A stretch of DNA of 45,252 bases, counting the filler, from Jimgerdemannia flammicorona (taxonomy: Eukaryota): NCBI GenBank assembly GCA_003990765.1. It is 2 parts of 2 records of this genome, joined end to end, with 100 filler letters (N's around TTAATTAATTAA, not from the genome) between each part and the next. Parts side by side here need not be neighbours in the genome. Positions count along the whole stretch, not along the records: positions 22,680 to 45,252 come from RBNJ01001245.1; 1 more part is not named here. One strand, given 5' to 3'. Below the pieces are notes generated by a model. The model worked only from the letters and a program-made list of their open reading frames with translations. It did no database searches and was not told where the DNA came from. Positions 7,337-45,252 of this stretch are shown piece after piece (positions within the stretch are counted from its first letter, which is position 1; each line of letters opens with the position of its first letter). Position numbers and translations under genes: made by a program.

Positions 7337-7922
7337 TGTCACATAGTGATCACTGAGTCCTTTAAATATATCAGATTCTCTTCAAGATATATCTCTTAGA
7401 CTAACTTAAGTTTGTTATAAGTAAGTTCTTATTAGAGTGCCTTCCCAAGATCTTATAGTCCTCAAACTTCTTATCTTTAAACTGTCTTGTTATCTCTTTA
7501 GATTGCTTGTAAGGAATTGTATATATTATACTGAGTAGACTGACTTTATTTTAGAAGAAATAAGAGGAGTATTTATACAAAATATAATTCATTGGTTGCT
7601 AAGATATAAAGCTAAATATAAATTCCAATAACTAAAATAAAATACCAGAATATGGAAAACTGCTAAGTTCCAGTATTAGTACTGATAGTTACACAGGTTC
7701 AGGATGCTGGAATAATTTTGATGATACAGAAAAATAGTACTGGAATAATTCAGTATCATATCAGAATACTGGTGGAGGAACAGCTGTTACATAGGAAAAG
7801 AGTGCTGGCATAATTCAGTGTAACTAAGGGACTTTAGAGCAGAATGTTCAGAACCATAGGGGCTTCATTCTTGTCCAAGGTCAGGATGTCTTCAAAGGAG
7901 ATGAGGTCTATAAATATTTCAT

Positions 7923-7962
<40 letters not shown>

Positions 7963-20434: not shown

Positions 20435-22443
20435 TCAATACTCGCCCTGCTGCACCTCCTCCTCCAATATCTCCGCTACCACCGAGCGCGTTTCTGTCAT
20501 ATGCCCGAGTTCTTCCTTTGTAAGCACCGCCTTCACCACATTCTCATCGACCTTCTTCTCCTGAGTCTCAACAACATCCGCCCTGGCGACCACGGCGGGG
20601 TCGTTATTGCTTATCCCCATCTTGTCGAATTGTCCAAATTCCGACCCGAAACTTGACCAAGTCACCTCCTTCGACTCCCCGCTGACAAAGCTGCCAAACA
20701 ATTCCTCGTCCAAAATGTCCTCCACACCAGCACCATTTGCTCCATCGGCGGACTTGGATTTCTCGTTGCTGACAAACCTACCAAATCCATCGTCCCCGCC
20801 CTCGTCAGCCACACTCGAGGCCGCCAGGAATGCGTCGCCGCTCCGGTCCGCGAAGGCGTCGTCGTCCTCGTCGTCATCATCAAAGGAGGTTCGCTGCTCC
20901 CTTATCGAAGTCGTCGACGGCCATGCTGGTACGTTGGCATTCGCATCCGTCGCTGCTGCTGTTGATGCTGCAGTTGTCTGTGGGAAACCTGACGTCCAAT
21001 CAGCATTTTTGTTGGCCGATTCCTGTTTCATCCGAATTTAGAAGGATATAGGGTTTGAAAGAAGACGTGTGAATAAAGTGCATGAATTCCTCCAAAGATG
21101 CAAACCGAAAATTGCGCGTGTGTCAATCCTTTCCCTTTCTCGAAAAGCGACACAAAGGAACCTGAACCATTCCTAATGAATTTATAATCTCTCGTATACT
21201 CCGCAATTCGTACAGGCTACGAACACAAGCTTACCTCGTCATCACTATCCACGCCATCAAAATCTCCGTCCTGTGTATTGCAAAAGGGATCGCCCTCCAC
21301 AGCATTCGTGTTCGTAAATGCACCGTGGATGTCGAAATTCGCTTCTCTGTCAAAGTCGCTACAATATAATTGTATTCGAGTTGGATAAGTTAATATAAAC
21401 GTTCACTGATGAACAAACGTAAATAAGCTCGAGGGATAAAATGATACAAACCCCATCCACGCTCCATCGTCTTCTTCTTCCTCGTCTGATAGAGGATCAT
21501 CTGTATCTGCAATTTGCTTGTTGAGGTACCTTTTGAACTGATTTTGGGAAAGACAATTGTCATTTAGAAATTCACGATCCTAGCAATATAACCTGCACAA
21601 CTTCCCCCTGGATAAACATACTTGCTCGTTGGCCAATTCTCCGTCCGCCACTCCTTCCATTCCATCCTCATCCTCATCCTCTTCGCTCTCCCCATGGGTC
21701 TGATCCATGCCATCGTGGCCCGCTGGCCGAGCTCCCCCAAGAGGGACTCGATCTCGTTCCTTCGTCTCCCGCAAACCTTTGGCGACGTACTCACTCCAAG
21801 TGTCTAGATCAACGGCGCCTTTGATGGCCGTGACAATCTCTTGTGGATAGCGTTCAAAAAGTTTGACGACCTCGTCCGAGATGAAGGTTAAATGTCCCAT
21901 GTAGCCGAGACGGACGCCTTTCGGTTTCGCACTGGCGGGGTAGGCAGAAAAGAAAGATATATTTGAAGGCAGCTTGGGGATGATTGGATCAATTGACCCA
22001 GTGAATTTTCGGACACCACAAAGATGAAATGTCATTCAGAAGAACAGGAAGGTACGACTGGGAGAAAACTCGGAGTGGTGGAAGATAGGAGATCAACGGA
22101 TCAAAATGAAATACTCACGCCTCGGCGTCATTATGTGCTTGAGCGTCCACGATTCTCTTGGTTAGCTGTCCGTCTATGAATACCTTGAATGTCATGTTTG
22201 AATAGTGTATGCGTAAATTGGTCCTGGCGTTTATTTATCCATGTTCCCTCTCCAGTTCGCATGAAGCATCTTTTCGCGACCTTTCTAATGTCAAGCACAA
22301 CATAATACCGACGGTGATATATTTACCGAATTTACAAGCTCCCGGTTGTAACCGACATCCATGCGGCCGTTGAACATTTGGTGAAGCATGTCGTAAACGA
22401 CGTAGTGCAAGAAATTGTTCCATGGAAAGTTGAAAAATAGATC
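20435..22443 (-). CDS. SIT4/PP6 phosphatase-associated protein (SAPS family, SAP155/185/190-Ekc1-like), 3' six exons; 5' part lost at the gap
   Basis: GT-AG exons 22443-22327, 22183-22119, 21931-21622, 21537-21452, 21358-21235 and 21022-20435 join in frame. They give DLFFNFPWNNFLHYVVYDMLHQ...RLGYMGHLTFISDEVVK...WSEYV...LRETKERD (SAPS motifs) and an acidic tail. Confidence 0.92.
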
Positions 22444-22579: not shown

Positions 22580-22679
22580 NNNNNNNNNNNNNNNNNNNNN
22601 NNNNNNNNNNNNNNNNNNNNNNNTTAATTAATTAANNNNNNNNNNNNNNNNNNNNNNNNNNNNNNNNNNNNNNNNNNNN
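22580..22679. other. Assembly gap with artificial TTAATTAATTAA linker
   Basis: N runs flank a 12-mer carrying stops in all six frames. Adjacency across the gap is not guaranteed. Confidence 0.9.
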
Positions 22680-25600
22680 AATTCGACGGGAGCTGCTATT
22701 ATTGCGGCAAGTATGGACACCGTGCGAATGAATGCATGAAAAAGGAAAAGGACAAGGGTGGAAAGAAAGGAAAGAGTGGCAAGCAAGCGAATAGCGCAGA
22801 TTCTAACGCCAATAAGGGAGGATTGTTCTTCGCCGATGTAGATTCGGACCCTTTTGGACCAGTGAAAAATGTGCAAGCCACCCTGACATCTACGAGATCT
22901 AGTTCTACATCCACCAGCGCCAGTTCTACCTGCAAATGCGCTTGCTCGACATCTACGGAACCCGACATTCGGAATACTTTTCAAGGTGCGAAAAGTGGCG
23001 GTGACGTAAACAGCATGTGCGCCAGTGCCAGAGACGAGTATACACCGAGCGCTAACATTGCATGCGATGAAGAGGACATCTGGCTCCTAGATTCAGGCGC
23101 ATCCCAGCATATGACTTCACACCGCGAGTGGTTCTCTACGTACGAACCCTTTGACAACCCCGTGCATATCAGATTGGGTGATAATAAGGTTATATACGCT
23201 CAGGGGAAGGGCAATGTCAGCATGTATTTGCATGGAAACGTTAAGGAACCCTACGCGACCTTTATGGACGTACTGTACGCTCCAGGGATAGGAAAGAACC
23301 TCTTCTCGATGGGTCAAACGCTAGCACGAGGGGATAAGCGAATCTCAGGAACGTGCGATGGTGTGAAGATATACGATCTCGACGGCAAAGAAGCATTAAC
23401 GACCAGGAAGCATGGATACTTATGTATACGCAATAAATGGAACGCCGAGTGGCGCAGCTGCGGCGAATGCAGCGTGGTCTGGAACAACCAGCGTAGCGTA
23501 TACCTGGCACCGGAGACTCGGACATATCAGCCCGACAAGCCTCGAACATATGATAAGGAACGGTTCGGTGAGCGGACTCCCGGACAACTTATGCCCGGAC
23601 CATATGCTATGTGATGATTGCACGATGAACAAGGCCTGTTAACAACCCTTCCAGGAACGGACGAAACGAGCCTCAGGGATACTCGATTTGGTACACTCAG
23701 ACGTATGGGGACCTGCGAGAAATAAATCACACTCCGGGAAGAAGTATTTTATTACGTTCATCGACGACTATACGCGCAAGGTCTATGTATACCTTATGGT
23801 GGCGAAGAGCGAAGCTTTGGAAAAATTCGGAGAATACAAGGCTATCGTCGAAAACGAGACCGGACGTAAAATTCGAGCACTACGCTCAGATAACGGCAAG
23901 GAGTACGTTAATAATCAGTTCAAGAACTTCTTGACGAGACACGGGATAAAACACCAAACGACGGCTCCCTATACGCCTCAGCAGAATGGCGTAGTGGAGC
24001 GTTTTAACCGAATGGTAGTGGAGATGGCCCGTACAATGCTCAACGCGGCCGATCTATCGAAGCCCTTTTGGGCCGAAGCGGTGAATACGGCGGTGTATAT
24101 ACACAATAGGTGTATTTCTCAAGCTCTAAGCAAGGATGCTTGTGGCAACGATCAGCAATCCAGGAACGAGGATAATGCTACGCCACATCAGCTATAGAGT
24201 GGAAATCGGCCCGATATCTCACATCTACGCATATTCGGAAGCGAAGCCTACATTCTAGATAAAAGCGGAAATAAGGATAAGTTTGATCCAAAGGCTACTA
24301 AGCATGTGTTCCTCGGGTATAGCAATGGTTGCAAAGCATATAGGCTGTGGAATCCAAGGAAGCGGAGAATTGTTAACTCCCGTGACGTTACATTCAAGGA
24401 ACCCGGCGTACAGGATTCACACGTGAATATCGAGAAGACAACTACGATTACACATACGCTTCCGGGAACGCCCCCGGCAATCAACCTTACGCCTCCAGTG
24501 GCCAGTACTACGCCTCCGGTGAGTCCTCCGGTCACACCCCTGAAGACACCCCCGAAAATGTCACCTATCCCGGCGAGGATTCCTTCGCCACCTCCTGGAC
24601 CGAGGATAACTGAGATAAGGGATAGCGATGACGAGACTAGTGAAGCGGAGACGATTCTCCCATCTACGAAAGGTAAACAAAAGCGCAAATCCAGGACATT
24701 GGATACAGATCTAGGAGACTATTGGAATGTTCCGAAGACCCGACGCAAGCATCACGTGAACTACGCTTGCGAGTGCGCATACTTGACAATGGTGGATCCA
24801 TGATCATATGACGAAGCCGTATCCTCCCCTGATAGCAAGGAGTGGAAGCGAGCGATGGATGAAAAGTATAATTCGCTCATCAGCAACGGTACTTGGGATC
24901 TAGTACCTCTTCTGAGGGATCGTCAAGCTATAGGATCTCGTTGGGTATATAAAGTTAAGCGTCAAAGTGATGGAAGCGTAGAGCGGTACAAGGCATGCTT
25001 CGTTGCTAAGGGATATTCACAGGATTACGGCGTAGACTATAACAAGACGTTCTCTCCCGTATTTAAGCTCACTTCTCTACGCATACTACTGGCTATCGGT
25101 GCTGAGTACGATTACGAAATACAGCAGATGGACGTTAAGACTGCGTTCCTGAACGGTGACGTAGATACGGAACTATACGTCCAACAGCCGCAAGGATACG
25201 AACTATACGACGGGCGGAAAGAGCTCATATGCAAACTACGTAAAGGGTTATACGGAATCAAGCAAGCGGTGAGACTATGGAATCGGAAGATCGATCAATA
25301 TCTGCTTGACAACAGATTTCGGCGGTGCGAAGCGGATCCATGCATATATACGCGACATACATCCTCAGAAACGGTATACTTGGGGATATGGGTCGATGAC
25401 ATCATAATCGTTGGCAAGAGGAGCCAAGTTAACGAAGTAAAAGCTACGCTATGCCAGGAATTTGAGATGACGGACTTAGGCGACGCGTCCTTCTTATTGG
25501 GGATAGCGATTACACGTGACAGAAATGAGCATGCTATACACCTATCCCAAGCCACCTATGCTAAGCAAGTACTTGAACGATTCAGGATGAGCGATTGTAA

Positions 25601-26396
25601 GCCAGTGGCGATGCCAATGGAAACTACGACGAGGCTAAGGAAAAGTGACCCTACGCCCGACAAGAACATCCCCTATAGACAAGCGGTGGGATTCCTTATG
25701 TATCTTATGCAAGGAACGTGACCAGACATCTCCTATGCAGTAAACAAAGTGGCGCAGTACGCCTCATGCTATGACAACTCGCATTGGACGGCAATTAAGC
25801 GCATATTCAGGTACATCAAAGGAACAGCAGATTATATGCTCAGTTTGGGCGGTGATAAAGGACAAAGCGGGAGTCACGTGTGTGTCTCCGGAGCTTGCGA
25901 CGCCGATTGGGCCGGCGACCTCGACGACCAGCGCTCTACGACCGGATATCTCTTCCATATCGGCAAAGGGGTTATCTCGTGGCAAACACGTAAGCAATCA
26001 TCAGTGGCCACATCCTCTATGCAAGCGGAATATCAAGCGTTGTCCACAGCAACTAAGGAAGCTGTATGGCTATGGGAATTACTAAAGGAATTAGGGTATA
26101 CTCAGGAACGAGACTCTACGCTGATCTTACAGGATAATCAATCTACGATTGCATTAGCAAAGAACCCTATACATCATGCAAGAACTAAGCATATCGACAT
26201 TCAACATCATTATATACGCGAATGCGTGGAAAACGGTACTATACGCCTGGAATATACGCCAACGGAGTCTATGACAGCAGATTCTCTTACGAAGGCCCTT
26301 CCGAGGCCAAAATTTGAACACTGCGTGCAAGGGATGTGTCTTACGAGCAACCCTACGCTACGGCCAGGATTCAGGGACCACCAACAACAACAATAA
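22680..26396 (+). pseudogene. Copia gag-pol polyprotein with one frameshift (about 23420) and four premature stops
   Basis: CYYCGKYGHRANEC knuckle, WLLDSGASQHM, WHRRLGH..CDDC, VHSDVWGP..RSDNGKEY..NGVVER, QMDVKTAFLNG, WVDDI, CDADWAGD, RTKHIDI. Stops at 23640, 24195, 24801 and 25719 are each consistent with C>T/G>A change. Confidence 0.95.
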
Positions 26397-26735
26397 TCGA
26401 CGCAAATCACGAGACTTTCCTAACGGCGAAAAGCCTCCAACATATACATCTTACATCCCCTATGAACATTGCACATCCGTACTGCATTTCTATTTACAAG
26501 TAAGCAAGCAAACATTTCAAGCGGACATCCATTTCGGACATTCGGACTGTTTATCAGTTCCTAGCACACCCTTTCTACTACGTATTCTACCTATTTTAGT
26601 GCTTATAAGCAGGGAATTCGGACATTTTTTAGGTTGATAGATAGCACCCATTCTACCTATCGTTTCCTGCATTGCATTCATTAGTTAGTTAGCATGCATT
26701 TCTGCAGTTTGAGCGCATATCTCATTGAGTGGGAG

Positions 26736-27744: not shown

Positions 27745-28783
27745 GCAGAACTCAAGGAAATGGAAGAAGCTGGAATCATTAAGCAAGCTATTAGTCTCTG
27801 GGCTTTACTCATTGTCCTTGCCCCAAAGAAAAGAAGTAAGCCTGGAGAGTTTACTCCAAAACCCTGTATTGACTACAGAAAGCTCAATACAATTACCAAG
27901 AAGAATAGGTAGCTCTTGCCAAATATTCAAGAAATCCTTACCATCTTTAGAAGTGAAGCCAAATACTATACTATCTTGGATCTGTTCTCAGGCTTTCATT
28001 AGGTTGGTCTCACTCAAGATATCAGTGAGAAATCAGCCTTCATCACACCTAATGCTACCTATATCTACCTGTGAATGCTATTTAGAATGTGTGATGCCTC
28101 AGTAAGTTTTCAGTAAATGATAAACAGAGTCTTCAGCAATGAGATCAGAAAATAGCTCTTTATCTATATTGATGATGTGATCATCTTCAGTAATACTGTA
28201 CAGAAATATGTCAACCATATATAGCTAGCCCTCAAGAATCTCAAAGAGTATGGCCTCTACATCAAGCCCAAGAAGTGTAAGTTTGCAGCTCAGAAAATTG
28301 CCTACCTAGAACACCTTATCAACCAGATCAGAATCCACATAGACCCCATGAAAATCAAGGCTGTTGCAGCCTACCCAAGACCCAGAACAACTATAGAAGT
28401 CTATGTCTTCCTTGGACTGGCCTCTTACTATAGAAGATTCATCAAAGGATATTCCAATATTACAGCACCTATCTATGAGCTACTGAAAAAGGAGACTAAA
28501 TTTGAATAGACCAAGAAATGTCAAAAAACCTTCAATGAACTCAAGATCAGGTTGATCCAAGCACCCATCCTCAGAAGACCAGATTGGAACCTAGAGTTCA
28601 TCCTACAGATAGATATAAGTACTATAGAACTTAGAGCAGTCCAAGCTCTGAAGAAAGATGGATATAAATATGTTATCTCCTATGCAAGCTGAGGTACCTG
28701 TAGAGCAGAATAGAACTATGAGTCATGTAAGCTCAAATACCTACTAGTAGTTTGAGCAGTAGACAAGTTTTACTACTACCTAG
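27745..28783 (+). mobile_element. RT-RNase H fragment of a second family-A Gypsy copy
   Basis: Reverse complement homolog of 3426-4447; includes YIDDV at about 28165. Confidence 0.92.
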
Positions 28784-30177
28784 TGTGACAAACCAGGACA
28801 TACCACCTGAATTATACCTTAGCCAGATGATGTGAACATATAGCATAGTAACCAGCAACTATTGCTATGGAAACTGTATAAATAGCTAGACTACCAGATA
28901 AGGTATATCTGTGCAGGACCTGTACACCTGTGCCAGACCTACACACTTGTACTGGACCTGCACAACTTGCCATAGATAGCAAATCTATAGTTAGCCACAT
29001 AGCAACCAGATAGCAACCACAATATATAAATTACCCCAGAGACAAGAGTGAATAAACCTCAGTCTGAAATACAAACACCAAAGAAGCCTCTAAAGATTGA
29101 GCATTGGTCCCCTTTCCACTCCAGTCCACTTTCTAATATAAAGAAGAGTTTGTTACATTTTTTGGTTTGCTTGCCAGATAAGCCTGAAGATTTGCTGCCT
29201 AAGTTCAAGGAGAACTTTGCTGCCTTTCGAGTAATCCACTGTTTAAGGAATAAGCTGCCATTTCCAAGTTATCCACATTCCCAGAGAAAGCCACCTTGTA
29301 CAAGCCAGTTTCTGATGCAAATTCACAGTGATCTGTTATGTAAATGAAGCCAGTCTTTAATGCAACTTTGCCAAGAGACCCTTTCTAAGCCATCAGTTAT
29401 ATTTCCCAAAGAATTCACCGCCTGTTGTTCATATTCCCAGTTGAAGCTGATTTGGGAAGAACCCATGCCATCCGAGTTAATTCCCAGTTAAGCCATCATT
29501 TTCAAGAAGTCCGTCGATTCAGGAAGAATCCATATCATCCGCCATTTCCAAGTTAACTGCCATATTCCCAGAAGAACCTGATTTGGAAGAACTCGCACCA
29601 TTCAAGTAGTATTCCCAGTTGTAGTTATCTGTTGTTCCCAGTGAGCCCAAGTTATCAAGTTACTCACTGCCAGTACAATTCCCAGAAGAAGAATCCACGC
29701 CATATAATTCCCAGTGAGCCAAATCGAGCTATCTGCCAAATTATCAGAACGTCTGCATAAGGAATCCATCATGCTTACACAGAGATCGTCACACAGAAAA
29801 TTGCATAAGGAGAACCACTAAATTGCCAGACCGTCACACCCAGAAGATCGTTGCACTACACAAGATCGCTACACCCAGAAATCGCATACTTTTGGAGATT
29901 GCCTCACTACACAAAATTGTGGCATTCCCAGTTGACCCAAGAAGAAAATATATTTACACACAAATTGCCACTACACCCAGAGAACTGTTCCAATTAGGAA
30001 ATCGACACACAAATCACTCACAGATATCCAGCTTTTGACTATTATACCACTAAACACCAAAGACCTCAAGAATCTCAGAACATTTTGTTGCTTTTTGACA
30101 AAGTAACTGGGGGCTCAAGCCAAACTACATCAATCCCCAACCTTGTAATTTGCCTCCATTGAGCCAGGCACATTACA
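28784..30177 (+). repeat. 5' LTR of family B (about 1.39 kb)
   Basis: TGTGACA...CATTACA. Homologous in reverse to 41026-42425. TATA at about 29024, AATAAA at 29051. Confidence 0.88.
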
Positions 30178-30179
30178 TT

Positions 30180-30197
30180 TGGGGGCTCAACTGGAAA
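30180..30197 (+). other. Primer-binding site, probably tRNA-Pro
   Basis: TGGGGGCTCAACTGGAA two nt after the LTR resembles the canonical tRNA-Pro PBS TGGGGGCTCGTCCGGGA. Confidence 0.7.
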
Positions 30198-33100
30198 GAT
30201 TTTAAAATCAATGTGACTTTTCAGCTCACAAGAACTCACAGTCAAACTGGATACATTTGATACAACACTAATCTCTGCTACTACAGGAGAACCAGTTATT
30301 ACCAGCATCTAGACAGGAAGAGAAGTAATCACTTCAAGACTTACCAATTACCCAACATCAGAAGGATCCCAACCAGAACCAGAAGACAGTATAGCCCGAA
30401 ATCTCCAACCAGATCAACCAGACAATACAGGCAGCCCTGCTAGAGATTTTGGAGAACTCACACAAGAACTAGAAGACCTTATCACATGGACCCAATACTT
30501 TACAGCCAGACACCCTATACCAGTCCCACCAATCTCACTAACCAAACCCCTACCACAAACTCTTGTAGAACCAGAAGTAGCTCCTACAAGAATACCTAGG
30601 CCTATTCTGCTTTGTCCAAGATCCAGAACACCATCCTCAGGATACCCAAGCATCCCCATCTCTAGTGATAGTTCAGAAAGTAAATCAGAATCAGAATCCA
30701 AACTTAAACCAGAATTAGAAGAAAGTGATAACAAAATGGCCACCTCATTGCCAACCTTTGCAGGATATCCAGAGGAAGACCCCAGAGAATTCCTTGATGG
30801 AATTGAAGGAATTGCAGCCTTGAGAAATCTCTCAGATGAAAGAAAAATCACCATCTACAAAGCTCAGATCAGAGAACCAACCAGAGGAATTTTCCATTAA
30901 ACAGAAAACAACCAAGATTCAGAACTAGCAAGACAGATACAAGCAGCAATGTCTGATGAGCTAGAATATGAAGCCATGGTCCACTGGCTCATCGAAAAAT
31001 ATGCAGAAAATGAAACCTGCCATAAGGCTCAGGAATCCATCATAGGAATGAAGATAAATCTTAGAGAATCACCCAGAGCCTTCTTTACAAGAATCCAGAA
31101 GAGAATGCATTCTGCTGGGTTCAATGCCACCAACCAAGACATCATAGGTCCAATGACCTTCATGAATGGAATTTCTCCAAATATTGCCTAGTATGTCCAC
31201 ACCCTAAGCATCAGAAGGTCTGAAGAGCAAGTAGATACAGCTCAAGGATTCTTTGATATCAGGCAAGGAACTACCTGGAGTGATCATGACAAGAAGGAAG
31301 ATAAAGAAGATATCCTGGTCAAAGCCCTGCAAGGACTTCTTCAAGAACAAGAAAGATCCAAGGAAAGAAGGCCAGCCAAGGAAGGAAAGAAGGACAGAAG
31401 CGAAATCCAAGACCTCAGCTCCAAGTTAGACCGATTGGTTAGACAGATTGAAAAACTCACCACATATGAAAATTGGGACTACCAAAACAACAGAGGGTAC
31501 CCACCATAGAGGAGCCAAGGTTATCCACCAAGAGATAATAGGAATTACCAGCAAGAAGAAAGAAGGTACCCTGTCCAAGACAGAGCCCAAGTCCAATACT
31601 TTCACTGTGGACAATTTGGACACTATGCCACTGAATGTGATAATAAAAGAAGTGACTGAAGGAACTCAAAATCAGCAAACCAAAGAAATGACACTCAGTA
31701 CAAGAAGACTGAAGCCCATCCTGTTGAAGATTTTGAAGAAACAAGCAACAGTGAAGACTACAGTGACCTAGACTTGTACCCAACTAAGGTTACAATCCAG
31801 AAAACAGTCTATCCAGTAGAGAAAAGAAAGAGACCTATAGGAAGATCATCCAGGAACATCAGCAGAAGAATTATCCAAGAAGAGGATGAAGAATATGAGG
31901 AGGAACAAGTAGAAACACCTCCCCAAACCCTCTCACCTTTTGTCCCTAAGATAAATGAGTTACCACTAAAAGATGAAGAAATAGAACAAGAAGAATGGGA
32001 ACCTGCTGCTCCAAAGCCTAAGAAGAAGTACACTCTGAAGACCATGCTTAGAGATATTTACAATGAAGCCTGGCAGAAGATTCAAAAGCTAAGATGGAAG
32101 TCCCTCTCCTGCAGTTCTTGCAACTGATATCAGCTGGAGTTCGAAACAAATTGCTGAGAACCACCAGGTCTAGCACTGGCCAAGTTCCAATCCCACAGTA
32201 AGAACCAGCCTCCATCTCTGTCCAAGCAGCCAAAAGACATATCAGCACCTATCTATATGGAGATATTGGAGGACAAAAAGCGAAAATCCTCATAGATACA
32301 GAAGCAGCTGTCTGTGTCATTGCCAAATAATTCTTGGACACTCTCCAATGGCCCATTGATGGACTGTCCAACCTCAGCATCATAGTAGCAGATGGAGCCC
32401 AAACTCAACCCCTTGGAGAAGTATGAAATATCACCATCTCTCTTGGACACATTCAGTTCTCCATCCCCAAAGCTATTGTCACTGAAGCTGTCACCTATGA
32501 TATAATTCTTGGCACCAACTGGATGAAGGAAATGAATGCAGTTATTTATATCAGCCAATAAGTACTTAAGTTTGACTACTGAGGCAAGAAGTACAGAGTT
32601 AAGGTGATCAGCTATGAGCAATCGAAGAAGAAGAAGAAGATCACTATTCAGGAAGAGTATGCCAGCAGTGAAGAATCCATCACAGAAGAAGAGGAAGAAT
32701 CTGAAGATGGAAATGATCTCAGACTCAATCCCTGAATCAATCTGGTGGATGACTGACTAGAAGATAATGTTTGGGCCAAGAACACTATCCCTATTACCAT
32801 TGGAGCTATTGCAGGAGAAGCCAAAGGATGCCCCACATGCCTCAAGAGACACAAGTGTCCCGAGGACTCCTCCAAGATCATGGGAACAAGGAAATCGCCT
32901 GGCACAGCCTGTCCAGAGTGCAGAAGGAAGAAGAAGAAATACAGATATGTTTCAGAAACACCTGCAACTGAAGCTGCGAAAGTACAAGCAATTTGGGGTC
33001 AAGAATCATCTGAGGAAGAAGAAACTTCTGACCAAGAAGTTCCTGAACAAGAAGCACCTGATGAGGAAGAGGTCCCTGAACTCATTCCCTGGGATAACCC

Positions 33101-33926
33101 TCACTGGACACCACCTGAAGACAATGACCCTTGGAATACAGAAGAAGGACCCAGTATAATCATGATTATCTCCAAGAAAGAAACCCACCAAGAGAAAGCT
33201 TTTTGGCTAAGAAGATGTCCACACCAAATGATTTTCCACTCTCCCCAAGACTACTGCTATCAGTGTCATCTGTTGGACCAATAAGAAAGACAGAGACCCC
33301 AGAGACCAGAACCCCCAACTACCCTTGTACAGTCCACCACCTTTCAAGAAGTCACCACAAGATTACAAAGTTGATTTAGGGGACAAGACTTCTTCACCCA
33401 AACAGAAATATACCCCTTATCTACCCTTCCCCCAACCTATGATTAAGATGGGTACCAATTCCCAAGACAATAAGAGATAAATAGTTGGGAATATCATTTT
33501 TGGGCAATGGGATATTGCAACCATGGGAGACACCCTGACTGCTGAGACTGCAGACATTAGAAGATTCACCTCAGTCATGATGTTGCAGTACACACTTTGA
33601 AGAAAGGAGATAACCGAAGCCAGATCCAAAAAAGCCAGATTCGAAAAAGCCAAACCAAGAAGCCTGGAAAAAGAATTCTCAAGATCTATAATCTGGGAGA
33701 AGACATCCTAGCTCTCATCAGACATGCAACTCACTAAGGATAGGCAGAAGATGCCACCAACTTCATGGAAGCCCTTGACCCTACAGGAAGGAGGGGAATC
33801 AACTATCTCCGAGACCCCTCTACTGGAGCCAGATGGCCACACCTCAACCTTAGAGCTTGGAGGCTTTCTGCTAGTAGAGCTTCAGCTTTAGAAAAACCCA
33901 AACTCAGTAAGGATATTGCCCAGTAT

Positions 33927-34325
33927 GCCCTGCTGTACCCCAAGGTCAAACCCCTGACCAAAGCCCACCCAGAGGATGTAGGATATGATCTTCACAGCCT
34001 GGAGAATGAATCTATCAAGCCTGGAAAAACCTTCATAGTCAGAACCGGATTAGCCATGCAGCCATCCCAAGGAGCTTATATTCCACTGATCTCAAGGTCT
34101 GGACTTGCCAGACAAGGGATAACCATAGAAGGAGGAACCATTGACCCTAGATATATAGGTGAAATCAAGGTTATCCTACACAACAGCAGTGCAGAATAGC
34201 ACCAAATAATTAGGGGACAGAAGATTGCACAAGCAGTCTTCATGAAGGTCAAGACCCCACAGTTACAGAAAGTCTCTGAACTAACTGAAGGAACAAGACA
34301 AGCCAAGAGATTTGGAAGTTCAGGC
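33927..34325 (+). pseudogene. Trimeric dUTPase domain within pol of family B
   Basis: DVGYDL, SRSGLA, IEGGTIDPRYIGEIKV, KIAQ, RQAKRFGSSG, with one internal TAG. Confidence 0.93.
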
Positions 34326-35837
34326 AGGAAGGAGGTATATCTCCTTCAAGTCAACCATCTCAAGAGGAATGTTCCCCAGCAAGTGTACTGGCAACCAGTC
34401 AGACTGTACAAGAATCTCATCCTGGAGCCCGTAGAACAAACTACCTTTGAAATCTTTGCACCACCCGACCCCAGAAACCTTTTCTTTGAACCCAAGGAAG
34501 ATATCCCATACCTGGACATAGAAGGACACACATTCTCTGACAAAATGAACCCAGTACACTCCTGAGAAACTAACCAAAGTTGGGAGACCATTATCTTGCT
34601 GAAAGGAACCATCATAGGACATCTGGTGCCCTTTCTCAACTGAACTCATAGGGAAGTTTATGAACTAAACCTATCAGGAAATGGCAAAAGGTCCCAGAAG
34701 AAAGAAAAGGCCCCTCTGTGATCGAGGAAATAGTAAAGCTTTCCACCAATATTGGAGAAGAATTGACACTCCAACAACAGCAACAACTAGTAGAACTTCT
34801 CAACAAATATCAAGATATCTTCACTACCGATTATGGCAATCTGCCATACAATCTATCATACCACCACAGCATAAATACAGGAAATGCAACACCCATCTGG
34901 CAGAAACCCTATAGAATACCCCATTACTTAAAAATATTCGAAAAAGAGCACATCCAGGAACTCCTAGACAATGGAGTCATCTGACTCTCTACCAGCCCCT
35001 GGGCCAGCCCTATACTTATTGTACCAAAGAAAGAAGGATGGAGACTCTGCATGGATTACAGAAAACTCAATTCAGTCACTGAAAAGGATTCCTATCCTCT
35101 ACCCAGAATCAATGACCTCTTAGATCAGTTACAAGATACTAGATACTTCAGCAGTATGGACCTCTTTGCAGAATTCTATAAGATCCCCATGGACCCCAAG
35201 GACATTAAAAAGACAGCCTTTCTTGCTTTAGGAAAACTGTTTGAATACCTCTGAATACCCTTTGGACTCTGCAATACACCCCCTACCTTTCAGAGGATGA
35301 TGAATTCAGTCTATGCCCCCTTGATCCACTACTACCTGATTGTATATATGGACAATTCCAACATCTATTCAGCAAATTTCAAAGAATACCTACACCACCT
35401 AGAGGAATTCTTCAAGCTCACCCACAAGAATTACTTGAGATTGAATGCAAAGAAATACTACTTTGGGAAACAGAAACTCGAATTTCTGGGATTCATGGTT
35501 TCAAAAGAAGGAACTCATGCAGACCCAAAGGAAACTGAGAAGATCAACAATTGGCCAGTACCCAAGACTCCAAAAGAAACACTATCATTCCTGATACTAG
35601 TATCTTACTACAGAAGGTTCATTAAGGATTTTGCCCAAATTACTGCTCCAATCTGAATCCTTCTCAAGTAAGGAATGCCGTTCAAATGGACAGAATCACA
35701 GGAAAAAGCCTTCAGAAAACTCAAGAACCACATGATTACAGCACCAATCCTTGTGTGCCCCAATCTTCATCTTATATACAGATGCTTCCAAAGATGACCT
35801 AGGAGCAGTCCTAGCCCAAGAAGGATCTGACCATCCA

Positions 35838-38800
35838 CATCTCTCTCTAGTACCTCTTGGGTTACACAACTTTTGGAAAGCAACTACAACATCATTTTTG
35901 GAGAAAAGAGACTAGTAACTTGGCAACTGACAGGTAATCTGAGGTGTATACTGGGTAGGGTGGCCCAAGTGCATTCGACTGGCAGTATGTGGGGAGAGGC
36001 CCTGGCCTGGGGAGAGGTATGAGGGGGCTGCTGGCAGGTGGATGTGGAAGGGAAGGAGGCAGTGGTGGAGGACAGAGATCTGGGAGGGCAAGCTTTGCTG
36101 AGATGGTGAAGGGGAGAAGGCAGATATTGGGGCTGGAGGGTTGGTTGAGGAAAGGCAAGGAAATGGAGAAGGCGACAGTATATGGGGGAGTAGCCCTTGG
36201 TAGAGAGAGCAGTAGGGTTGGTGGTATAGGGGCTGGGGGGGGTGTAATGGCTGATGGAGGCAGGACTGCTAATCTGGAAAAAAATTCAGATGTGACTGTA
36301 GATGGTACGGCTGAGCAACTGGGGTCTGGGAGACAAGGAGATTTGGCAGATGGTGTGATGGGCCTGACAGTGGCACCATTACTCAAGAAATTGATCTTGG
36401 CATTTGCAGTGACACTGTGCTTCTGGGGCCTAGCAGTGATGGTGAAAATAGTACTGGGGCTGATTGCTAAGCAGGTGGCTGGAGCAGTGTCCATAAAGTT
36501 TTTAAAGAGACTGGAGGGAGTGGAGGTGGGCTTTGAGGAGGCTGAGCCTTTGGAGGAAGCATTGAAGATTGGTTTGATAGTTGGGGAGGTGTGTGTTCTG
36601 ATGGCATGATGCCTGAAATGGGATCCCAGAGTGGTCCAACTGCTGGTGAAAGGGGTGCCCACAGTGATGGCAATGGAGACAAGAAAGAGAGTTGAGGAGG
36701 TCATGGCAGAGTATGGAGAAGTAGTGGATATTGGATTCAGGGTCTGGGAGAGGACCTCACTCAGGACTGGAGATGTGGACATGAGGATCTAGCTGACAGG
36801 GAAGGAGGCCACCAGGAAGACAAGGAACTGGCCTTCCAGTATAGTCTGAGGGGTGATCATGTGCAAGGTAATGAGGGTGAAGGGGAGTGAGGAGGAGGAA
36901 GAGGACCTATTAGAGGTGCTGGAAGAGTTGAGTGGTGTGGTGGAATAGTGGGCAAAGGCTTGGAGGGCCTTTGAGGAGGCAATGCACTTAGAGGTGGTGG
37001 ATGGAAAGCAGATTCGAGTGAGCAAGGAGCAGTGGGAATGAGATCAGAGACATAAGAGATAGAGAGAACTGCTGGTGAAGATGAAGGGTGGACCTCAAGA
37101 GAATATGAACAGGATGGTGGACATGGGGGGGACCAAAGTGAGTGTCTGGGCAGGCAAGGAAAGTGGGAGTACTAGGAAGGAGACTGGTGAGGACAGGGAG
37201 GTGACTGGCAAGAATCCATATGCGGATGGTATGCTGGAGGTTTGGGATGAGACATGGGAGGACTCCCCTACCCCTACTCCCCTTATCAGGCAGGGCCCAG
37301 CTTCCCAAAGTAGAGTGGTGGAGGATGTGCCAATGCAGGGGGCCCAGAAAGTGCAATTTGGAGTCCCAGAGGTGGTGAAAGGGGGACAAGTGGTGGTGGT
37401 CAGTGAGGAGGAACTGGTGGATGTCCCAGAGGAGTGAGATGAGGCTGTGAGTGCTGGGGCTGATACTACAATGCTAGATGGTGAGAGGCCAGTGACTCCT
37501 GGAGGAAAGGAGGTGGGGAACCTCCTTTGGATGTGTAGGATGATGAACAACCTAGTGGCTGAGGAGCTGGGAGAGGTAGATTTGAGGGTTATAAGCAACA
37601 AGCATTGGGCAAGAATTCTGCAGGGGGAGGGGGTGGTGATGGCTTTGAAGGTGGAAATTCTTGCAGTGTATTTGGAGGAGGAGGGTTATGAGGTAGATAA
37701 GGAGTGGGAGGCAGAGATGGTGGGAGTCACAGAAGAGAGGGCTGAATACTGCTGGACCAAGTGTTATGGACTGCAGCTCTGGCAGGAAGCCTGCCTAGAG
37801 TACTGCAAGGAATTCAAGAAGAAGGCAGATGGGGAGATGAATGAGCTGTTGGCTGGACTGGAGGCTCAGAGGGCTGAAGAGGAGGCAGTGACTGTGGAAC
37901 ACAATCTGGACTTGGCACAGGAGGAGATGAACATGAAGCAGTAGAGAGAGCTTGATAACACACCATTTTTTACTATGAATAGTACAACCAACATTTTTTC
38001 TTTGAACATGAATGGGTTATGGGGTGCTTATTGATATAAGAACATTTTTACTTGGCTGAAGGGATTGGAGGCTGATCTTTTCCTCTTGCAGGATGTCAGG
38101 TGTGAGGATGACTTGAATAGACTGGAATGGACAAAGGAGTGGGGAGGTGAGGCAGTCTGGAAGAGCAAGGTTGGGATTCTGGTGTAGAAAAGCAGAGGAG
38201 AGATAAGGAATATGTAGAGCTGGGGGGATAGATTGGTCTGGGGAGAGTGGATATGCAAAGGTTGGGAGTCAGTAATGGTGAGCTCTTGTTACTGCCCTGC
38301 AGTACAGGGTGAGCATATGAATTGGGTGAAGGGCCTACAGAAGAGTGGAATTCTTGCAGAGATTGGAGTGGATATGCTTGGTGGGGACTTCAATATGGTC
38401 TGAGACATATTGAGGGATAGAACTGATGGGAGGAAGTGGAAAGACTGAGTGCTCTGGTGGATGTGGGTAGAGAATGTTGGGGGGATAGAAGGGTGTATAT
38501 GCACTGGGCTGGAGGCCTGGGGATGAGGATTGATTGGATTCTGACAGCCAGCTGCTGGGGCTTGGATGTTTGGAAGTCACTGGAGGTGGAATGGTGTCCT
38601 TGGTCGGATCATTGGGGGCTTTTAGGGCAGGGGCATTTTGGGGGGAGTGGGGATGGGCCTGGACATTGGTATCTCAATTTCTCCTTACTAGATGATAGGA
38701 TCTGGTGGGATGAGTGGGCTGAAGACATTCAACTGCAAGTGGAGTGCTGGAGACAGGAGGGTGCCCCAGTTGGTATCCAGTAGATGAGGATGAAGGAGAT

Positions 38801-39300
38801 GGCCAGGACCTTCTGGAGTGAGGCTGGTAAGGAGGCTGGGAAACAGAGGAGACAGCAGGTGTGGTGGGCTTCTAGTAGACTATCTAGGCTCTTAGAGGAC
38901 TGGGCAAGATTGGTGACATTGGAGGGGGAGGAGGATTGGAGATTGATAAGAGTAAGAATAGAGGTGGTTGAACTACAACAGGTGCTGTGGAATGAGAAAG
39001 AGGTAAGAGTCCAAGGTCTGGTAGTGTGGCTTCATTGGCAGAGGTTGGAGGAAGGAGAGAGGCCCTCAAAGTTTCTCACAAGAGCCCTTCAGGTGAGAAG
39101 GGTGCAATAAAGGTGGAAGGGGGTGCTTAATGCTAATGGTATACTGGTGTATGGCATACAAGATATTCTTGGATCATTAAAGGAGCATTGGAGTGAATTA
39201 TAGAGTGAGGAGGAGGGTGAGGCAGATACTGAAGACATTGACCGAGTGTTGGAGGATTGGTACTCTACACAAGCTGATGGACTGGGTGACTTAGGTTCAA
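35838..39300 (+). mobile_element. L1/Tx1-like LINE, 5' part (ORF1 about 35920-37955; ORF2 APE from 37975), truncated before RT
   Basis: ORF1 has RRM-like VQLLVKGVP..VMAEYGEVVDI..RTGD. ORF2 has IFSLNMNGL, DLFLLQD, GGDFN, RIDWIL, SDH and EGERPSKF. It starts CATCTCTCTC like the copy at 44937. Confidence 0.9.
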
Positions 39301-41025: not shown

Positions 41026-42425
41026 TGTAATATACCTGGCTCAATGGAGGCAATTTACAAGGTTAAGGGTTAGTATAGTTTGGCTTGAGCACCCAGTTAC
41101 TTTGTTAAAAGCAATAAAATACTCTTAGTGTTTAGTGGTATAATAGTCAAAACTGGATATCTATGAGAAATTTCCTTATTGAGATGGGTTCTCTGAGTGT
41201 AGCAGCAATTTGTAAATGGGTTTCTTTCTTGAGTCAACTGGGAATTAGTGGAATTTCATATATAGTGTAATAGTTTCCTTCTTGAGTGACAGCAATCTCC
41301 AAAAGTAGATGATTTCTGGGTGACAATTTCTATGTAGTGTAATGATCTCTGTATAGCATAGTAGATTCCTAAAATGGCAGCTTACTGGAAATTATACTGG
41401 CAGTAGGTTCTCCAAATTGAGCTCACTGGAAACAGATGAACAACTTGGCAGCAGATAACTCAGATAACTCAGATAACTCAGATATCATAGAAGGTGAATA
41501 ATTCAATAACTCAGATAACTCAGATGTTACAGATTCTTTCTGAATTAGCAGGCTTCTGGGAATAATAACTCAGAGAGTATGGATAATTTGAATAACTTAG
41601 GTATTGTAGATTCTTCCTGAATCAGCAGGGTTCTCTGAGAATGTAGATAACTTGAAAATAGTAGCTTCAACTGGGAAAGGATCTCTTGGTAAAGTTATAT
41701 TAAAGACTGGCTTTGTTTATATGATAGATCACTGCAAAGTTACATCAGAAACTAGCTTGAGCAAGGCAGCTTTCTCTTAGATAGTGGAAACTTGGGCTCT
41801 TCAGGCTTATCTGGCAAGCATACCAAAAGCATTGCAGCTTATTCCTTAAGCAACAGATTTCTCAAATGGTGGTGAAGTTCTTCCTTGAATATGGCAGCAA
41901 ACTTGGATTCTTCAGGCTTAGTCTGGCAAGTATATCAATTAATCTTTGTATTGGAAAGTGGACCAGAGTGGGAAAGGGGCAAAGCTTACAATCTCCTAGT
42001 GGTAGCTATAGAGCAGACATTTCTCCTAAATATTGCAATCCTTCCTGGATTAAGTGGCTTTTGGCAGGCATATCTCTTGAAGTATAGTGAGCAGACTTGT
42101 CTTTTGCTCTGTATTTCAGAACTGAGGTTTATTCACTCTTGTCTCTGGGGTATTTTATATAGTTATGGTTACTATCTGGTTACTATGTTACTAACTATAG
42201 ATTGCTAACTATGGCAAGTATTCTTTGAGGGTACAGTATATCTTGAGGGTATAGTATACCTTAAGGGTATGGTATATCTGAAGGGTATAGGTAAATATAC
42301 TGTTTCTGGTATCTCTGGCTAATTATACAAGTTGGTACAGTAAAGCAGTCTTGGTTGCTTAGTGCTCTAGATATAGTATGTGGCTAATTTATGATTTTGG
42401 CAGTACAATTCTATTGCTCATCACA
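41026..42425 (-). repeat. 3' LTR of family B copy (1400 bp)
   Basis: TGTGATG...TATTACA on the minus strand; homologous to 28784-30177. Confidence 0.88.
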
Positions 42426-42465
42426 TCAGCCCCCACTAAAGAATGGTCTGTCCTTAGACAATCCT

Positions 42466-42978
42466 TTAGTCATCATTCCAATATGCATAGGCATCTTCAG
42501 CATCAATACCTGAACTGGTATCTTCATTTGAATCAGAGTTACTCTACTTGACAGATTCATCTTCCTCCTCTGAAAACAGAATTTCAATATGGTTGATAAT
42601 ACTCCAGTAGGTGGCAGAGTTCATATTCTGAATATCATTCAGCAAGAATTGTGCTTGTGTCAATGCTGGGATATTTCATTTGTAGATTGTATATAATCTG
42701 TCTGCAGCAGTGGTATTTTTCTGAGTGAGGCTAGTGGAGTTTCTGATGTAGGTCAGGTCTGCTGCTGGGAGGTTCTACAACTGTTCTCTAATTATATAGT
42801 AGGCCTGCAGCTAGTGGACTTATAGTAAATGTTTGGCCAAAGTGAGGTTCTCTTGATGAGTCTGAATTTGCTGAAGTGGGTTTTCATTGGCTTGTTGGAA
42901 TTATAGAAGAGAAACTGGGAGTGATTGGAATGAACTCAGAACAAGAGTCTGGAGGCACTAGTCAATTATCTGGTTTAT
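42466..42978 (-). pseudogene. Extra ORF (about 170 aa) between integrase and 3' LTR, unknown function
   Basis: One frame from ATA (probably ATG) 42978 to TAA 42466. Internal stops are TAG/TAA/TGA revertible to CAG/CAA/CGA. Acidic tail. Motif shared with 597-1418. Confidence 0.7.
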
Positions 42979-44936
42979 AATGAGAGAGGTATATCTTGAG
43001 GTGGTTGATGTATACTGGTGTCCTGAGGGTCTGTCTATCTATACTTTTTAAATAGATACTAGTTCCTCAAATATTATATACAAGATAAGGTCCTTCCCAT
43101 TTGGGCTTCAATTTGGTGGCAAAATTCATTTCAATTATACTTCTCCAAACTAGTACTTGATCTCCAATCTTGATCTCCTGATCCTTCTGTTTCTGGTTAT
43201 AGTACTTTTTTTTTCTTTCTTGGGCCTTGATAATCTGGGCTTGGGCTTAATTACATAGCTGTTCTGCCTTCTTGAGGAGGTCTCTGAGATTCTCATGATT
43301 AGCAGTTCTGGTTTTCTTAGCAAACATTATTTCAAATGGCTTTTGTTTGATGGAGGTAGTAGGGGTATTCCAAATCTCCCATAAGATCTCAGGTAAGCAG
43401 AGGTCCCAGTTAGTAGGATTGACTTGGACAAGTCCTTTCTTAATGGTCTGATTCATTCTTTCTGTCATGCCATTGGTCTGGGAGTAGTATGATATAGTCT
43501 GTTTGAGGTAAATCTTGTGAATTTGGACATAACTTATGATTATGTTATTGATGAATTCTGTGCCTCAGTCAGAGATGAGTTCTTCTGAGAGTTCATATCT
43601 GAGTGTGAGTCTATAGAGAAGGCCTATAATGGTTAAGGCATCTGCGATTTCTATTGGAAAAGTCTTGGGCCATTTGGTTAGATATTCCACAAATACTAAA
43701 ATGTACTTGTTTCTTCTTAGTATAACTGGTAAGGGTCCAATTACATCTACTCCCCATCTCTGAAAGATATTGTCTGGTGGTATGATTGGTTGCAGTAGTG
43801 CTTGGTAGTTCTTCCTTCCTTAGTACTTCTGGCAGATATCACATTTCTTGAGTATATCCCAAACTTATGTTCTGAGATTGGACCAATACTGGTATGTTGT
43901 TTACAACTTTTCTTCTATGTTTGCTTGTCCTTAGTGGACTTTCTGATGTTCTTTTCAGATGAGATCTTCTTGTGTCTTGATGGTCTGAGGAACTTCCTTT
44001 GAGATGTAGTTCCTCAGGACACCCTTCTTCTAGTTCATTGGGACTGACAGGAAAGTATATCAATATTCTTGTAAGCTTTCCCTGCTTTGTGGATGATGGT
44101 GATTTTGTAATTCTGAAGGATAAGGATCCAGTGGGCCAGAATTCCAGTAGATTTCTTGTGGTTGAATAACCATTTGAGGGCTACATGATCTGTGATCAGG
44201 GTGAATCTTTTTCTAATAAGATAATACTTTAACAGGGTGACTGCCCATATGACTGCAAGGCATTCCAATTTGGTGCTGCCATAGTTTATCTGCTGTTGAT
44301 TGGTAGCTCAGCTTGCATAAGCTATCATATGATGTTGTTGGTCAGATCCTTCCTGGGCTAGAACTGCTCCTATGCTATCTTTAAAAGTACCTATATATAA
44401 GATGAATGGCTTCTATAGATTGAGGTATACAAGGATTGATACTATAGTCATGCAGTTCTTGAGTTCTTTGAAGGCTTTTTCTTGTGATTCTGTCTATTTG
44501 AATGGCACTCCTTTCTTGAGAAGGACTTGAATTGGGGCAGCAATTTGGGCAAAATCCTTGATAAATCTTCTGTAGTAGGATACTAGCATCAGAAATGATA
44601 ATGTTTCCTTTGGGGTCTTGGGTACTGGCCAATTGTTAATCTTTTTGGTTTTCTTTGGGTCTGTATGAGTTCCCTCTTTTGAAACTATAAATCTAAGGAA
44701 TTTAAGTTTCTGTTTTCTGAAGTAGCATTTCTTGGCATTGAGTCTCAGGTGATTCTTGTGGGTGAGTTTGAAGAATTCCTCCAGATGGTATAGATGTTCT
44801 TCAAAGTTGGTTGAATAGATATTGGAATCATCCATATATACAATCAGGCAGTGGTAGATCAAGAGGGTATAGACTGAATTCATTATCCTCTGAAAGGTGG
44901 GTAGAGTATTGTAAAGTTCAAAGGACATTCAGAGGT

Positions 44937-45252
44937 CATCTCTCTCCACTACAATTCACGTTACACACACTTTTCGACACACTTTCGAAGCTTTTATTGG
45001 AGAAAGATACTAAGGCAATGTCAACCAGCAAGCAAGCCGACACGCGTACTAGGTCGGGTGGACCTGGGGCCTTCGACTGGCAGACTGTCGGGAGAGGGTA
45101 TGGATTGGGGATGGGGTCCTTCGGTGGCTCGAGTGGGCAGGGTGGCTCCGGCAGTGGAAGTGGCACTGGAGGGGGGGCTGGAGAGAAGCAGGGGAGGAGC
45201 TTTGCGGACACACTGAGGGGTGGGGGCTGGCCATTGGGCACTCGTGGTGGAC
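44937..45252 (+). mobile_element. 5' end of a younger L1/Tx1-like LINE; ORF1 starts at 45018 and runs off the window
   Basis: MSTSKQADTRTRSGGPGAFDWQTVGRG...RSFADTLRG matches GGPSAFDWQYVGRG...RASFAEMVKG of the 35.9-kb copy. CpG is retained. It interrupts the Gypsy RT. Confidence 0.85.

Follow-up and report, generated by a model that had tools for sequence, protein, structure and literature searches.

The 45,252-nucleotide (nt) stretch of Jimgerdemannia flammicorona DNA analysed here (assembly GCA_003990765.1; two records joined end to end, called the window below) is a 45 kb field of decayed transposable elements, as revealed by self-comparison and Pfam scans. Two of its Ty3/Gypsy elements, A and B, carry a dUTPase and, beyond gag and pol, one further open reading frame (ORF). 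In element B this frame, termed ORF3, lies between integrase and the 3′ long terminal repeat (LTR); in element A the additional frame is found inside the LTR itself. Intact database relatives, a preserved position and a coding pattern of substitution identify 42978-42466 as the decayed copy of a genuine third gene of a dUTPase-carrying Ty3/Gypsy element. The element-borne genes of A and B are both unnamed, and a shared ancient family is plausible.

Two dUTPase-carrying elements and their accessory ORFs

Element B is present in the window as two partial copies, one per strand:

42466-42978, minus strand: family B ORF3, decayed; 170 codons plus stop, with six in-frame stops and ATA in place of a start codon
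44928-42962, minus strand: reverse transcriptase (RT), RNase H and integrase of the minus-strand copy, followed by ORF3 and then by the 3′ LTR
42962-44056, minus strand: family B integrase with a GPY-type C-terminus; the integrase of metagenomic contig L001 aligns over 44056-42971 at 72% identity
42428-42440, minus strand: G-rich, polypurine-like tract TTTAGTGGGGGC, between the ORF3 stop and the LTR
41026-42427, minus strand: family B 3′ LTR (TG...CA), aligned to the 5′ LTR of the plus-strand copy
28828-30177, plus strand: 5′ LTR of the plus-strand copy, followed by gag, dUTPase and an RT cut at 35841
33744-34562, plus strand: dUTPase of the plus-strand copy (PF00692, E 7e-17 and 2e-4 on two ORF pieces)

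Translation of ORF3 (42978-42469, minus strand; asterisks mark stops) gives ...LQAYYIIREQL*-x24-ADRLYTIYK*NIPALTQAQFLLNDIQNMN..., closing with the acidic tail ...GIDAEDAYAYWNDD. Its first codon, at 42978-42976, is ATA where the relatives have ATG. The pol stop of B is the TGA at 42964-42962, and ORF3 begins 17 nt upstream of this end in another frame. From its own stop (42468-42466) there are about 25 nt to TTTAGTGGGGGC and 39 nt to the LTR. The original prediction had placed the gene between integrase and the polypurine tract, which is where it lies (pol stop at 42964-42962, tract at 42440-42428). Judged by its position directly 5′ of the TG of the LTR, TTTAGTGGGGGC would be the polypurine tract of family B. 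The LTR start TGATGTGA is common to 42427 (minus) and 28828 (plus), the boundary at 42427 being placed by eye, and the LTR terminates in ...TTACA, after which a TTTGGGGGCTCAAC resembling a primer-binding site follows in the plus-strand copy. Similarity at the BLAST level starts only at 42219 in the minus-strand copy and 28965 in the plus-strand copy because each has its own short tandem repeats in the 5′ part of the LTR (42220-42300, minus; 28900-28964, plus), with units of about 21 nt, ATACCCTCAAGATATACTGT, in one copy and CCTGTRCA in the other.

A word-indexed search returned intact relatives of ORF3 in three of 16 candidates (E 4e-57 to 2e-40), namely P0009, P0010 and P0011, of 172, 171 and 183 amino acids. 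When aligned to the window by tblastn, these proteins cover 42978-42469 at 49-63% identity (E 1e-62 to 5e-47). An exhaustive search of 1.84 billion representatives with the B profile added five further proteins, mostly partial and all at E <= 1e-21. Among 263 pattern matches in a metagenome scan with the B alignment, one contig was confirmed: L001, of 4101 nt, which encodes in order a dUTPase (E 1.6e-15), RVT_1, RNase H, the zinc finger and core of integrase, and the first 83 codons of ORF3. A scan of viral contigs with family B confirmed none of 242 matches. The original prediction suggested checking whether profile hits sit 3′ of a Gypsy integrase and co-occur with dUTPase, and in L001 the B gene does both.

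The gene also keeps its position. ORF3 of L001 overlaps the end of integrase, with a frame that stays open back into the integrase C-terminus, and the N-terminal extensions of P0013 and P0011 are alternative-frame readings of the integrase end. ORF3 thus recurs in related elements, after integrase in L001 and in frames that run into the integrase end in P0011 and P0013, and its overlap with the end of pol is preserved in elements whose integrases are 72% identical. Over 83 aligned codons, the window copy agrees with L001 at 0.59 of first, 0.82 of second and 0.41 of third codon positions; this order, 2 > 1 > 3, shows that ORF3 has been under purifying selection at the protein level.

Element A occupies the other end of the window, on the minus strand:

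10106-7341 and 1658-104, minus strand: LTRs of element A, with pol in the order protease, dUTPase, RT, RNase H, integrase
104-1658, minus strand: 3′ LTR, preceded by the purine tract AGGAGGAAGA at 1670-1661
7341-10106, minus strand: 5′ LTR, interrupted by a 1.2 kb insertion (7933-9121)
597-1418, minus strand: family A ORF, 3′ LTR copy; 273 codons plus stop, with four in-frame stops
9107-9865, minus strand: family A ORF, 5′ LTR copy, main part (tblastn)
7923-7837, minus strand: family A ORF, 5′ LTR copy, last 30 codons, beyond the 1.2 kb insertion (hidden Markov model, HMM, match at 7837-7941)
4679-5128, minus strand: family A dUTPase domain, between protease and RT (PF00692, E 4e-18)

The LTR limits were set by the polypurine tract together with LTR-LTR alignment. 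The ORF reads QI*QKYEIGNFL-x25-AKKIHQIFRHVL*LIPNLEYIRVSDFRDLS at 1418-600 (minus strand), within the 3′ LTR at 1658-104; it begins 240 nt into the LTR and stops about 500 nt short of the LTR end. Being wholly inside the LTR, it is therefore present twice per element. The original prediction assigned it to U3. Its place in the LTR is borne out, and that part of the LTR is putatively U3.

Intact relatives were recovered for family A as well, in five of 179 candidates at E 1e-98 to 6e-29. A profile search yielded six among 6463 candidates, including the intact P0004 (271 amino acids) and P0005 (247 amino acids), and the intact relatives span 215-271 amino acids. P0004 covers 1418-624 of the window by tblastn (64% identity, E 2e-104). 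Genomic context from outside the window was sought in a metagenome scan, in which none of 488 pattern matches was confirmed, and in a viral contig scan, with 0 of 172.

The two elements represent what are, by polymerase comparison, two distinct dUTPase-carrying Ty3/Gypsy families, as originally proposed. With L001 as the reference for B, amino-acid identity between them is 36% in RT, 46% in RNase H, 33% in integrase and 33% in dUTPase, so that pol identity amounts to merely 33-46%; the dUTPase of the window copy of B is 26% identical to that of A. The original readings of both ORFs, acidic tails included, agree with the translations of 42978-42469 and 1418-600, the spacings x24 and x25 are correct on counting, and a blastn self-comparison detected no DNA similarity between the two ORFs.

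The absence of a nameable family, also part of the original prediction, held in three collections. In Pfam, three window translations and six intact members gave best E-values of 0.06-0.36, below cut-offs; against PDB sequences, a single sequence and both profiles gave at best E 0.083; and among ESM Atlas clusters the best scores were 0.87 for B and 0.83 for A, below the 0.9 level taken as a lead. By these comparisons, each ORF defines a small protein family without described relatives.

Start, stop and many columns are kept across members that differ by up to half of their residues, start and stop being conserved among members down to 49% identity. On this protein-sequence evidence, both ORFs are relics of protein-coding genes, far above what chance would give. 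Their broken state fits the general decay of the window. Between the LTRs of element A there are 180 transitions against only 7 transversions, mostly exchanges between CpA and TpA or between TpG and TpA, and CpG observed/expected ratios are 0.01-0.12 in all four element blocks tested (among the regions listed, the LTRs of A, 28828-35841, 41026-44936 and 35900-39100). The pattern resembles that of repeat-induced point mutation or of methyl-cytosine deamination, and the many TAG, TAA and TGA codons in the window ORFs result from this transition-biased, CpG-depleting decay. Two stops (MF*DI and VL*LIP) are common to both LTR copies of the A ORF, and the remaining stops are private. The ORF of this element may thus have been broken already at insertion, or C-to-T hot spots may have been hit twice. 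The LTR location of the A ORF is known from one element, the six database proteins coming without context.

Predicted form and possible relatedness of the two proteins

Both proteins are acidic, with isoelectric points of 4.1-4.7 in the intact members. The last 40-50 residues of B have a net charge of about -20 (-4 to -9 per 20 residues), and this tail is predicted to be disordered. It ends in GIDAE(D/E)AYxxW(D/N)DD, invariant in all four full-length sequences, which has the look of a short linear motif that a partner might recognise. The A protein is Arg-rich at its N-terminus (charge +5 to +6 within a single 20-residue bin), and its tail ends DLISFEDI...DEDEAP..LN(F/I)LL. Hydrophobic segments were sought by run length, with no dedicated transmembrane predictor run, and the longest run was 3-5 residues in all six intact members. 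An env-like ORF3 was rejected for lack of such a segment in these six proteins. A duplicate of gag was rejected as well: in a six-frame translation of the window that includes both gag regions, the A and B HMMs match only their own ORFs.

AlphaFold2 monomer models of both proteins are all-helical, with helices predicted at residues 34-69 and 86-101 in B and at 47-83 and 100-114 in A. Paired prediction of two copies of P0009 scored 0.61, versus 0.35 for the best of three controls; contact agreement between runs was at least 91%, and the predicted local distance difference test (pLDDT) of the partner was at least 76. The predicted interface spans residues 30-84 in antiparallel orientation (52 with 52, 45 with 56, 38 with 63) and contains the Y-x-I-G-x-x-L motif common with A. 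The B protein is thus predicted to form an antiparallel helical homodimer through the long helix 30-84. For calibration, the mark for a dimer was reached by 21 of 30 solved one-chain pairs and none of 23 solved single chains from microbes; in eukaryotes the corresponding counts were 17 of 29 pairs and none of 30 single chains, but only one of the seven that lack an older solved relative reached it.

The case for a common origin of the two proteins begins with their register. Smith-Waterman, hhalign and HMMER all align B LQAYYAIGEQL...AADRLYTLYK with A WQEYEIGNLL...AKKIHQIFR, and a more divergent B subfamily is still more A-like, as seen for example in ATKRIHALYR (P0014) and YNIGQLL...AAKRIYTLFKR (P0011). 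In hmmsearch (Z=1), P0011 is matched by the A HMM at 9.0 bits (E 4.2e-5), and the B HMM matches P0006 at 10.1 bits (E 2.6e-5) and P0005 at 8.8 bits (E 6.5e-5), whereas the best of 12 reversed-sequence controls has an E of 0.018. In six sets of 5000 shuffles, global or in 20-residue windows, 0, 1, 0, 0, 1 and 0 reached the real scores, and correction for choosing the best of seven and the best of five leaves roughly 1e-3. Under the sequence alignment, at an offset of 13-14, the predicted helix boundaries of the two proteins coincide within one residue. The HMM-HMM comparison by hhalign recovers the same register with P 0.0088 and a probability of 4.6%, its score being reached by one of 90 column permutations. 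Weak similarity is also what would be expected, because pol is only 33-46% identical between the families and an accessory protein evolves fast, which places any relationship near the detection limit. On this evidence, A and B are probably remote homologues that share a core of about 55-70 residues.

Two unrelated accessory ORFs, separately acquired or invented, would account for the same likeness by chance or by convergence of Q/L-rich amphipathic helices with acidic tails, and we accord this explanation a sizeable minority chance. Several results speak for it and against a single family. The hhalign comparison weakens to P 0.02-0.039 with enlarged alignments, its probability staying at 1.3-5% overall. 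BLASTP of the intact P0005 against P0011 finds nothing in register and a match at E 0.94 in another register. The A and B HMMs do not cross-match the window copies above noise in six frames, and in Smith-Waterman comparison of those copies 128 of 1000 shuffles reach the score of the 3′ LTR copy and 3 of 1000 that of the 5′ LTR copy. No A-type protein appeared at E <= 0.001 in the exhaustive B-profile search. A weak, non-collinear match of like kind pairs B residues 2-19, DHRLQTLILSSFQS, with A DQFLQGLISVFQG (domain E 0.014-0.02); Q/L-rich helices can therefore match by chance. The register of the third motif is unstable, hhalign extension pairing B FSLYDIQRMN with A FWNPILQDN. Of the alignment first made by eye, the register of two motifs is thus recovered by three methods, and the third pairing, IPALTQAQF.. 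with IPNLEYIRV.., is not reproduced by hhalign. The predicted fold does not help, the monomer models (pLDDT 50.8 for B and 37.1 for A) being too poor for fold comparison; the ESM Atlas's own model of P0004 has a pLDDT of 0.35, and all structural rows have a template modelling (TM) score below 0.5. The dimer score expresses how confident the model itself is; its calibration comes mostly from microbes and does not cover disordered chains. Placement and length also differ, before the polypurine tract versus inside the LTR and 172 versus 247-271 amino acids. In the literature, dUTPase itself is seen as acquired more than once by fungal elements (PMC2864245), and bdelloid elements swap their ORF3s freely (PMC5408684). 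Chance or convergence is harder to reconcile with reciprocal HMM matches in one register, reached by zero or one shuffle per 5000, with the agreement of three methods on that register and with helix boundaries that coincide within one residue; at the observed pol identity, the faintness of the signal does not count for it. All in all, the profile comparison (hhalign P 0.009-0.04 and probability 1-5%; 9-10 bits for HMM against sequence) is suggestive, and homology is not demonstrated. The ancient helical family originally proposed stands as far as both proteins are predicted to be all-helical with acidic C-termini; their union in one family stays at the level of suggestion, and its age is deduced from pol divergence alone.

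The frames could also be captured fragments of host genes, short-lived passengers with no role for the element. LTR elements are known to capture genes (PMC7264820), the A ORF sits in an LTR, where foreign inserts are tolerated, and its two shared stops would suit a passenger. This origin is improbable in view of searches of 5.8 and 1.84 billion proteins, which gave only small, unnamed, Pfam-less proteins from contigs of 0.8-1.6 kb; no longer cellular gene with either domain turned up in those length-limited searches. The constant overlap of B ORF3 with the pol stop in elements with 72%-identical integrases, its codon-position pattern and the conservation of start and stop down to 49% identity also argue for a resident gene. 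Still less credible, and indeed very improbable, is that the ORFs are not genes at all but chance open frames or products of constraint at the DNA level, such as LTR promoter sequence. The six stops in 170 codons of the window B copy are near the expectation for AT-rich non-coding DNA, and the A ORF overlaps LTR DNA that is possibly constrained as a promoter, yet full-length intact ORFs exist in three (B) and at least two (A) independent database sequences at 49-79% identity, and the order 2 > 1 > 3 in codon-position identity already contradicts this explanation for B. Taken together, a genuine ORF3 gene, the relatedness of A and B and a regulatory role make up the account that we favour by slightly better than an even chance.

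A possible regulatory role and its precedents

The favoured account would run as follows. One ancestral accessory gene was retained while pol diverged to 33-46% identity, and in lineage A the LTR start shifted upstream of the gene. A shared helix-loop-helix core, Y-x-I-G-x-x-L ... A-x-[KR]-[IL]-[HY]-x-[IL]-[FY]-[RK], would coincide with the predicted dimer interface. The protein would be made from a subgenomic RNA, spliced or internally initiated; such an RNA is probably required for an ORF that comes last on a long gag-pol transcript. Family A could have a promoter for it in the 240 nt that precede the ORF within the LTR. The helical dimer might have nucleic acid or a protein of the element as its ligand, and a host factor might be brought in by the acidic-aromatic tail, much as export adaptors or acidic activation domains do. 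On this view, which we put well below even odds, the ORF3 protein would be a dimer that acts in trans to regulate the expression of its own element or serves as an adaptor in it. The original prediction named a transactivator or an anti-silencing factor as possible roles. A regulator or adaptor is preferred because a dimeric helical body with an acidic tail studded with aromatic residues has the build of an adaptor or activator; a structural cofactor or a counter-defence factor would be alternative roles. The bolder idea of an ancestral retrovirus-style regulatory gene of fungal dUTPase-Ty3/Gypsy elements, dimeric with a recruiting tail, taken into U3 in A and a counterpart of Tas, Rev or CERV, possibly with an anti-silencing function, is unlikely in our estimate.

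LTR retrotransposons are usually regarded as gag-pol machines, and to our knowledge experiments have explained the third gene in few cases, namely errantivirus env and the CERV gene of Cer1, which is encoded downstream of pol. If fungal dUTPase-Gypsy elements do keep such a gene, conserved, under selection and distinct from env, this would be a sign of self-encoded regulation in trans. If the A-type arrangement is true, every LTR, solo LTRs included, can carry coding capacity; should A and B prove homologous, the gene would date back to the divergence of lineages whose polymerases are only about 35-45% identical. For annotators, two families of currently "hypothetical" proteins without Pfam entries can serve as markers of this element group.

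Genes in or overlapping U3 include sag of mouse mammary tumour virus (MMTV), tas/bet of foamy viruses and nef of lentiviruses, and in foamy viruses Tas combines transactivator function with an acidic activation domain. The family A ORF resembles sag, tas/bet and nef in its LTR placement and is consequently duplicated with the LTR. These are vertebrate retrovirus proteins without sequence relation to A, and the assignment of the A ORF to U3 is itself conjectural.

Additional ORFs in sense orientation that follow pol and precede the 3′ LTR, termed aORF-3S, are a known kind (PMC7264820). Family B ORF3 resembles them in its gag-pol orientation, its location downstream of integrase, its recurrence in related elements and the lack of an assigned function, and it occupies the pol-LTR interval (pol stop at 42962, LTR from 42427). 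The A ORF does not strictly share this placement, as it sits inside the LTR. The aORF-3S described so far are mostly env-like with transmembrane segments (PMC7264820), whereas the A and B proteins are acidic, helical and without such segments.

Closer to the proposed role, CERV of Cer1, a Ty3/Gypsy element of C. elegans, is a novel non-env protein that acts in trans on the genomic RNA of its element (PMC10309623). It, too, is encoded by the element beyond gag and pol, and it is the leading experimental example in this class of a third gene with a regulatory role. The mRNA of CERV is spliced, and the protein depends on phosphorylation (PMC10309623).

The arrangement of the remaining domains also has counterparts. 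In the available part of PMC2864245, a dUTPase between protease and RT is described for Ty3/Gypsy elements of basidiomycetes (PosPlaTy3-3, -4 and -5, Phanerochaete) and of Tuber (Tmt1), an arrangement shared with A, B and L001; no mention of a post-integrase protein was found in that part. A figure legend of the same paper marks fungal Gypsy elements with an "add. ORF" of unknown function. This frame is also counted with the aORF-3S kind and may or may not be the same protein; it may bear on novelty. In the literature searched, no account turned up of a conserved protein encoded after integrase in dUTPase-Gypsy elements of fungi. LTR elements of bdelloid rotifers have a dUTPase between protease and RT and a variable ORF3 after pol, and third ORFs are argued to be shared between element lineages in these animals (PMC5408684). 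Those ORF3s are env-like or encode a GDSL esterase or a DEDDy exonuclease, none in the text available being small, acidic and helical as in A and B (PMC5408684). The host kingdom also differs, if the window is fungal.

Surrounding sequence

Other repeats lie in and around the two elements. Pol similarity of element A stops near 2031, and the roughly 360 nt between its end and the polypurine tract (2020-1659, minus strand) contain a stretch of about 75 codons, with a single stop, in which no domain was recognised. The 1.2 kb insertion in the 5′ LTR of A (7933-9121) is about 79% similar to 11318-12414, 3.4 kb away, and belongs to another repeat family. A third family A fragment, covering RT to RNase H at 27758-28783 (plus strand), is reversed relative to 3426-4449 and 85% identical to element A; it adjoins the 5′ LTR of the plus-strand B copy, which suggests nested insertions.

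Inside RT, at 35841, the plus-strand B copy is interrupted by a block at 35900-39100 (plus strand) that is rich in GC (50-53%) and strongly skewed towards G. A similar block begins at about 45000 (45000-45252, plus strand) beside the minus-strand B copy, and both share a Gly-rich frame, GGP.AFDWQ.VGRG. The six ORFs of at least 100 amino acids in these blocks, five in the main one plus 44772-45251, had no Pfam match at E <= 0.001; the G-skewed block may be a non-LTR element. A Ty1/Copia-type element occupies 23640-26400 (plus strand), with rve at 23643-24194, SH3_retrovirus at 24198-24800 and RVT_2 at 24804-25718 (E 1e-74). An ORF at 21583-22035 (minus strand) matches the C-terminal portion of the SAPS domain (SIT4 phosphatase-associated protein; E 1.8e-14) and probably represents a host-gene fragment amid the transposons; two N runs lie near it at 22580-22679.

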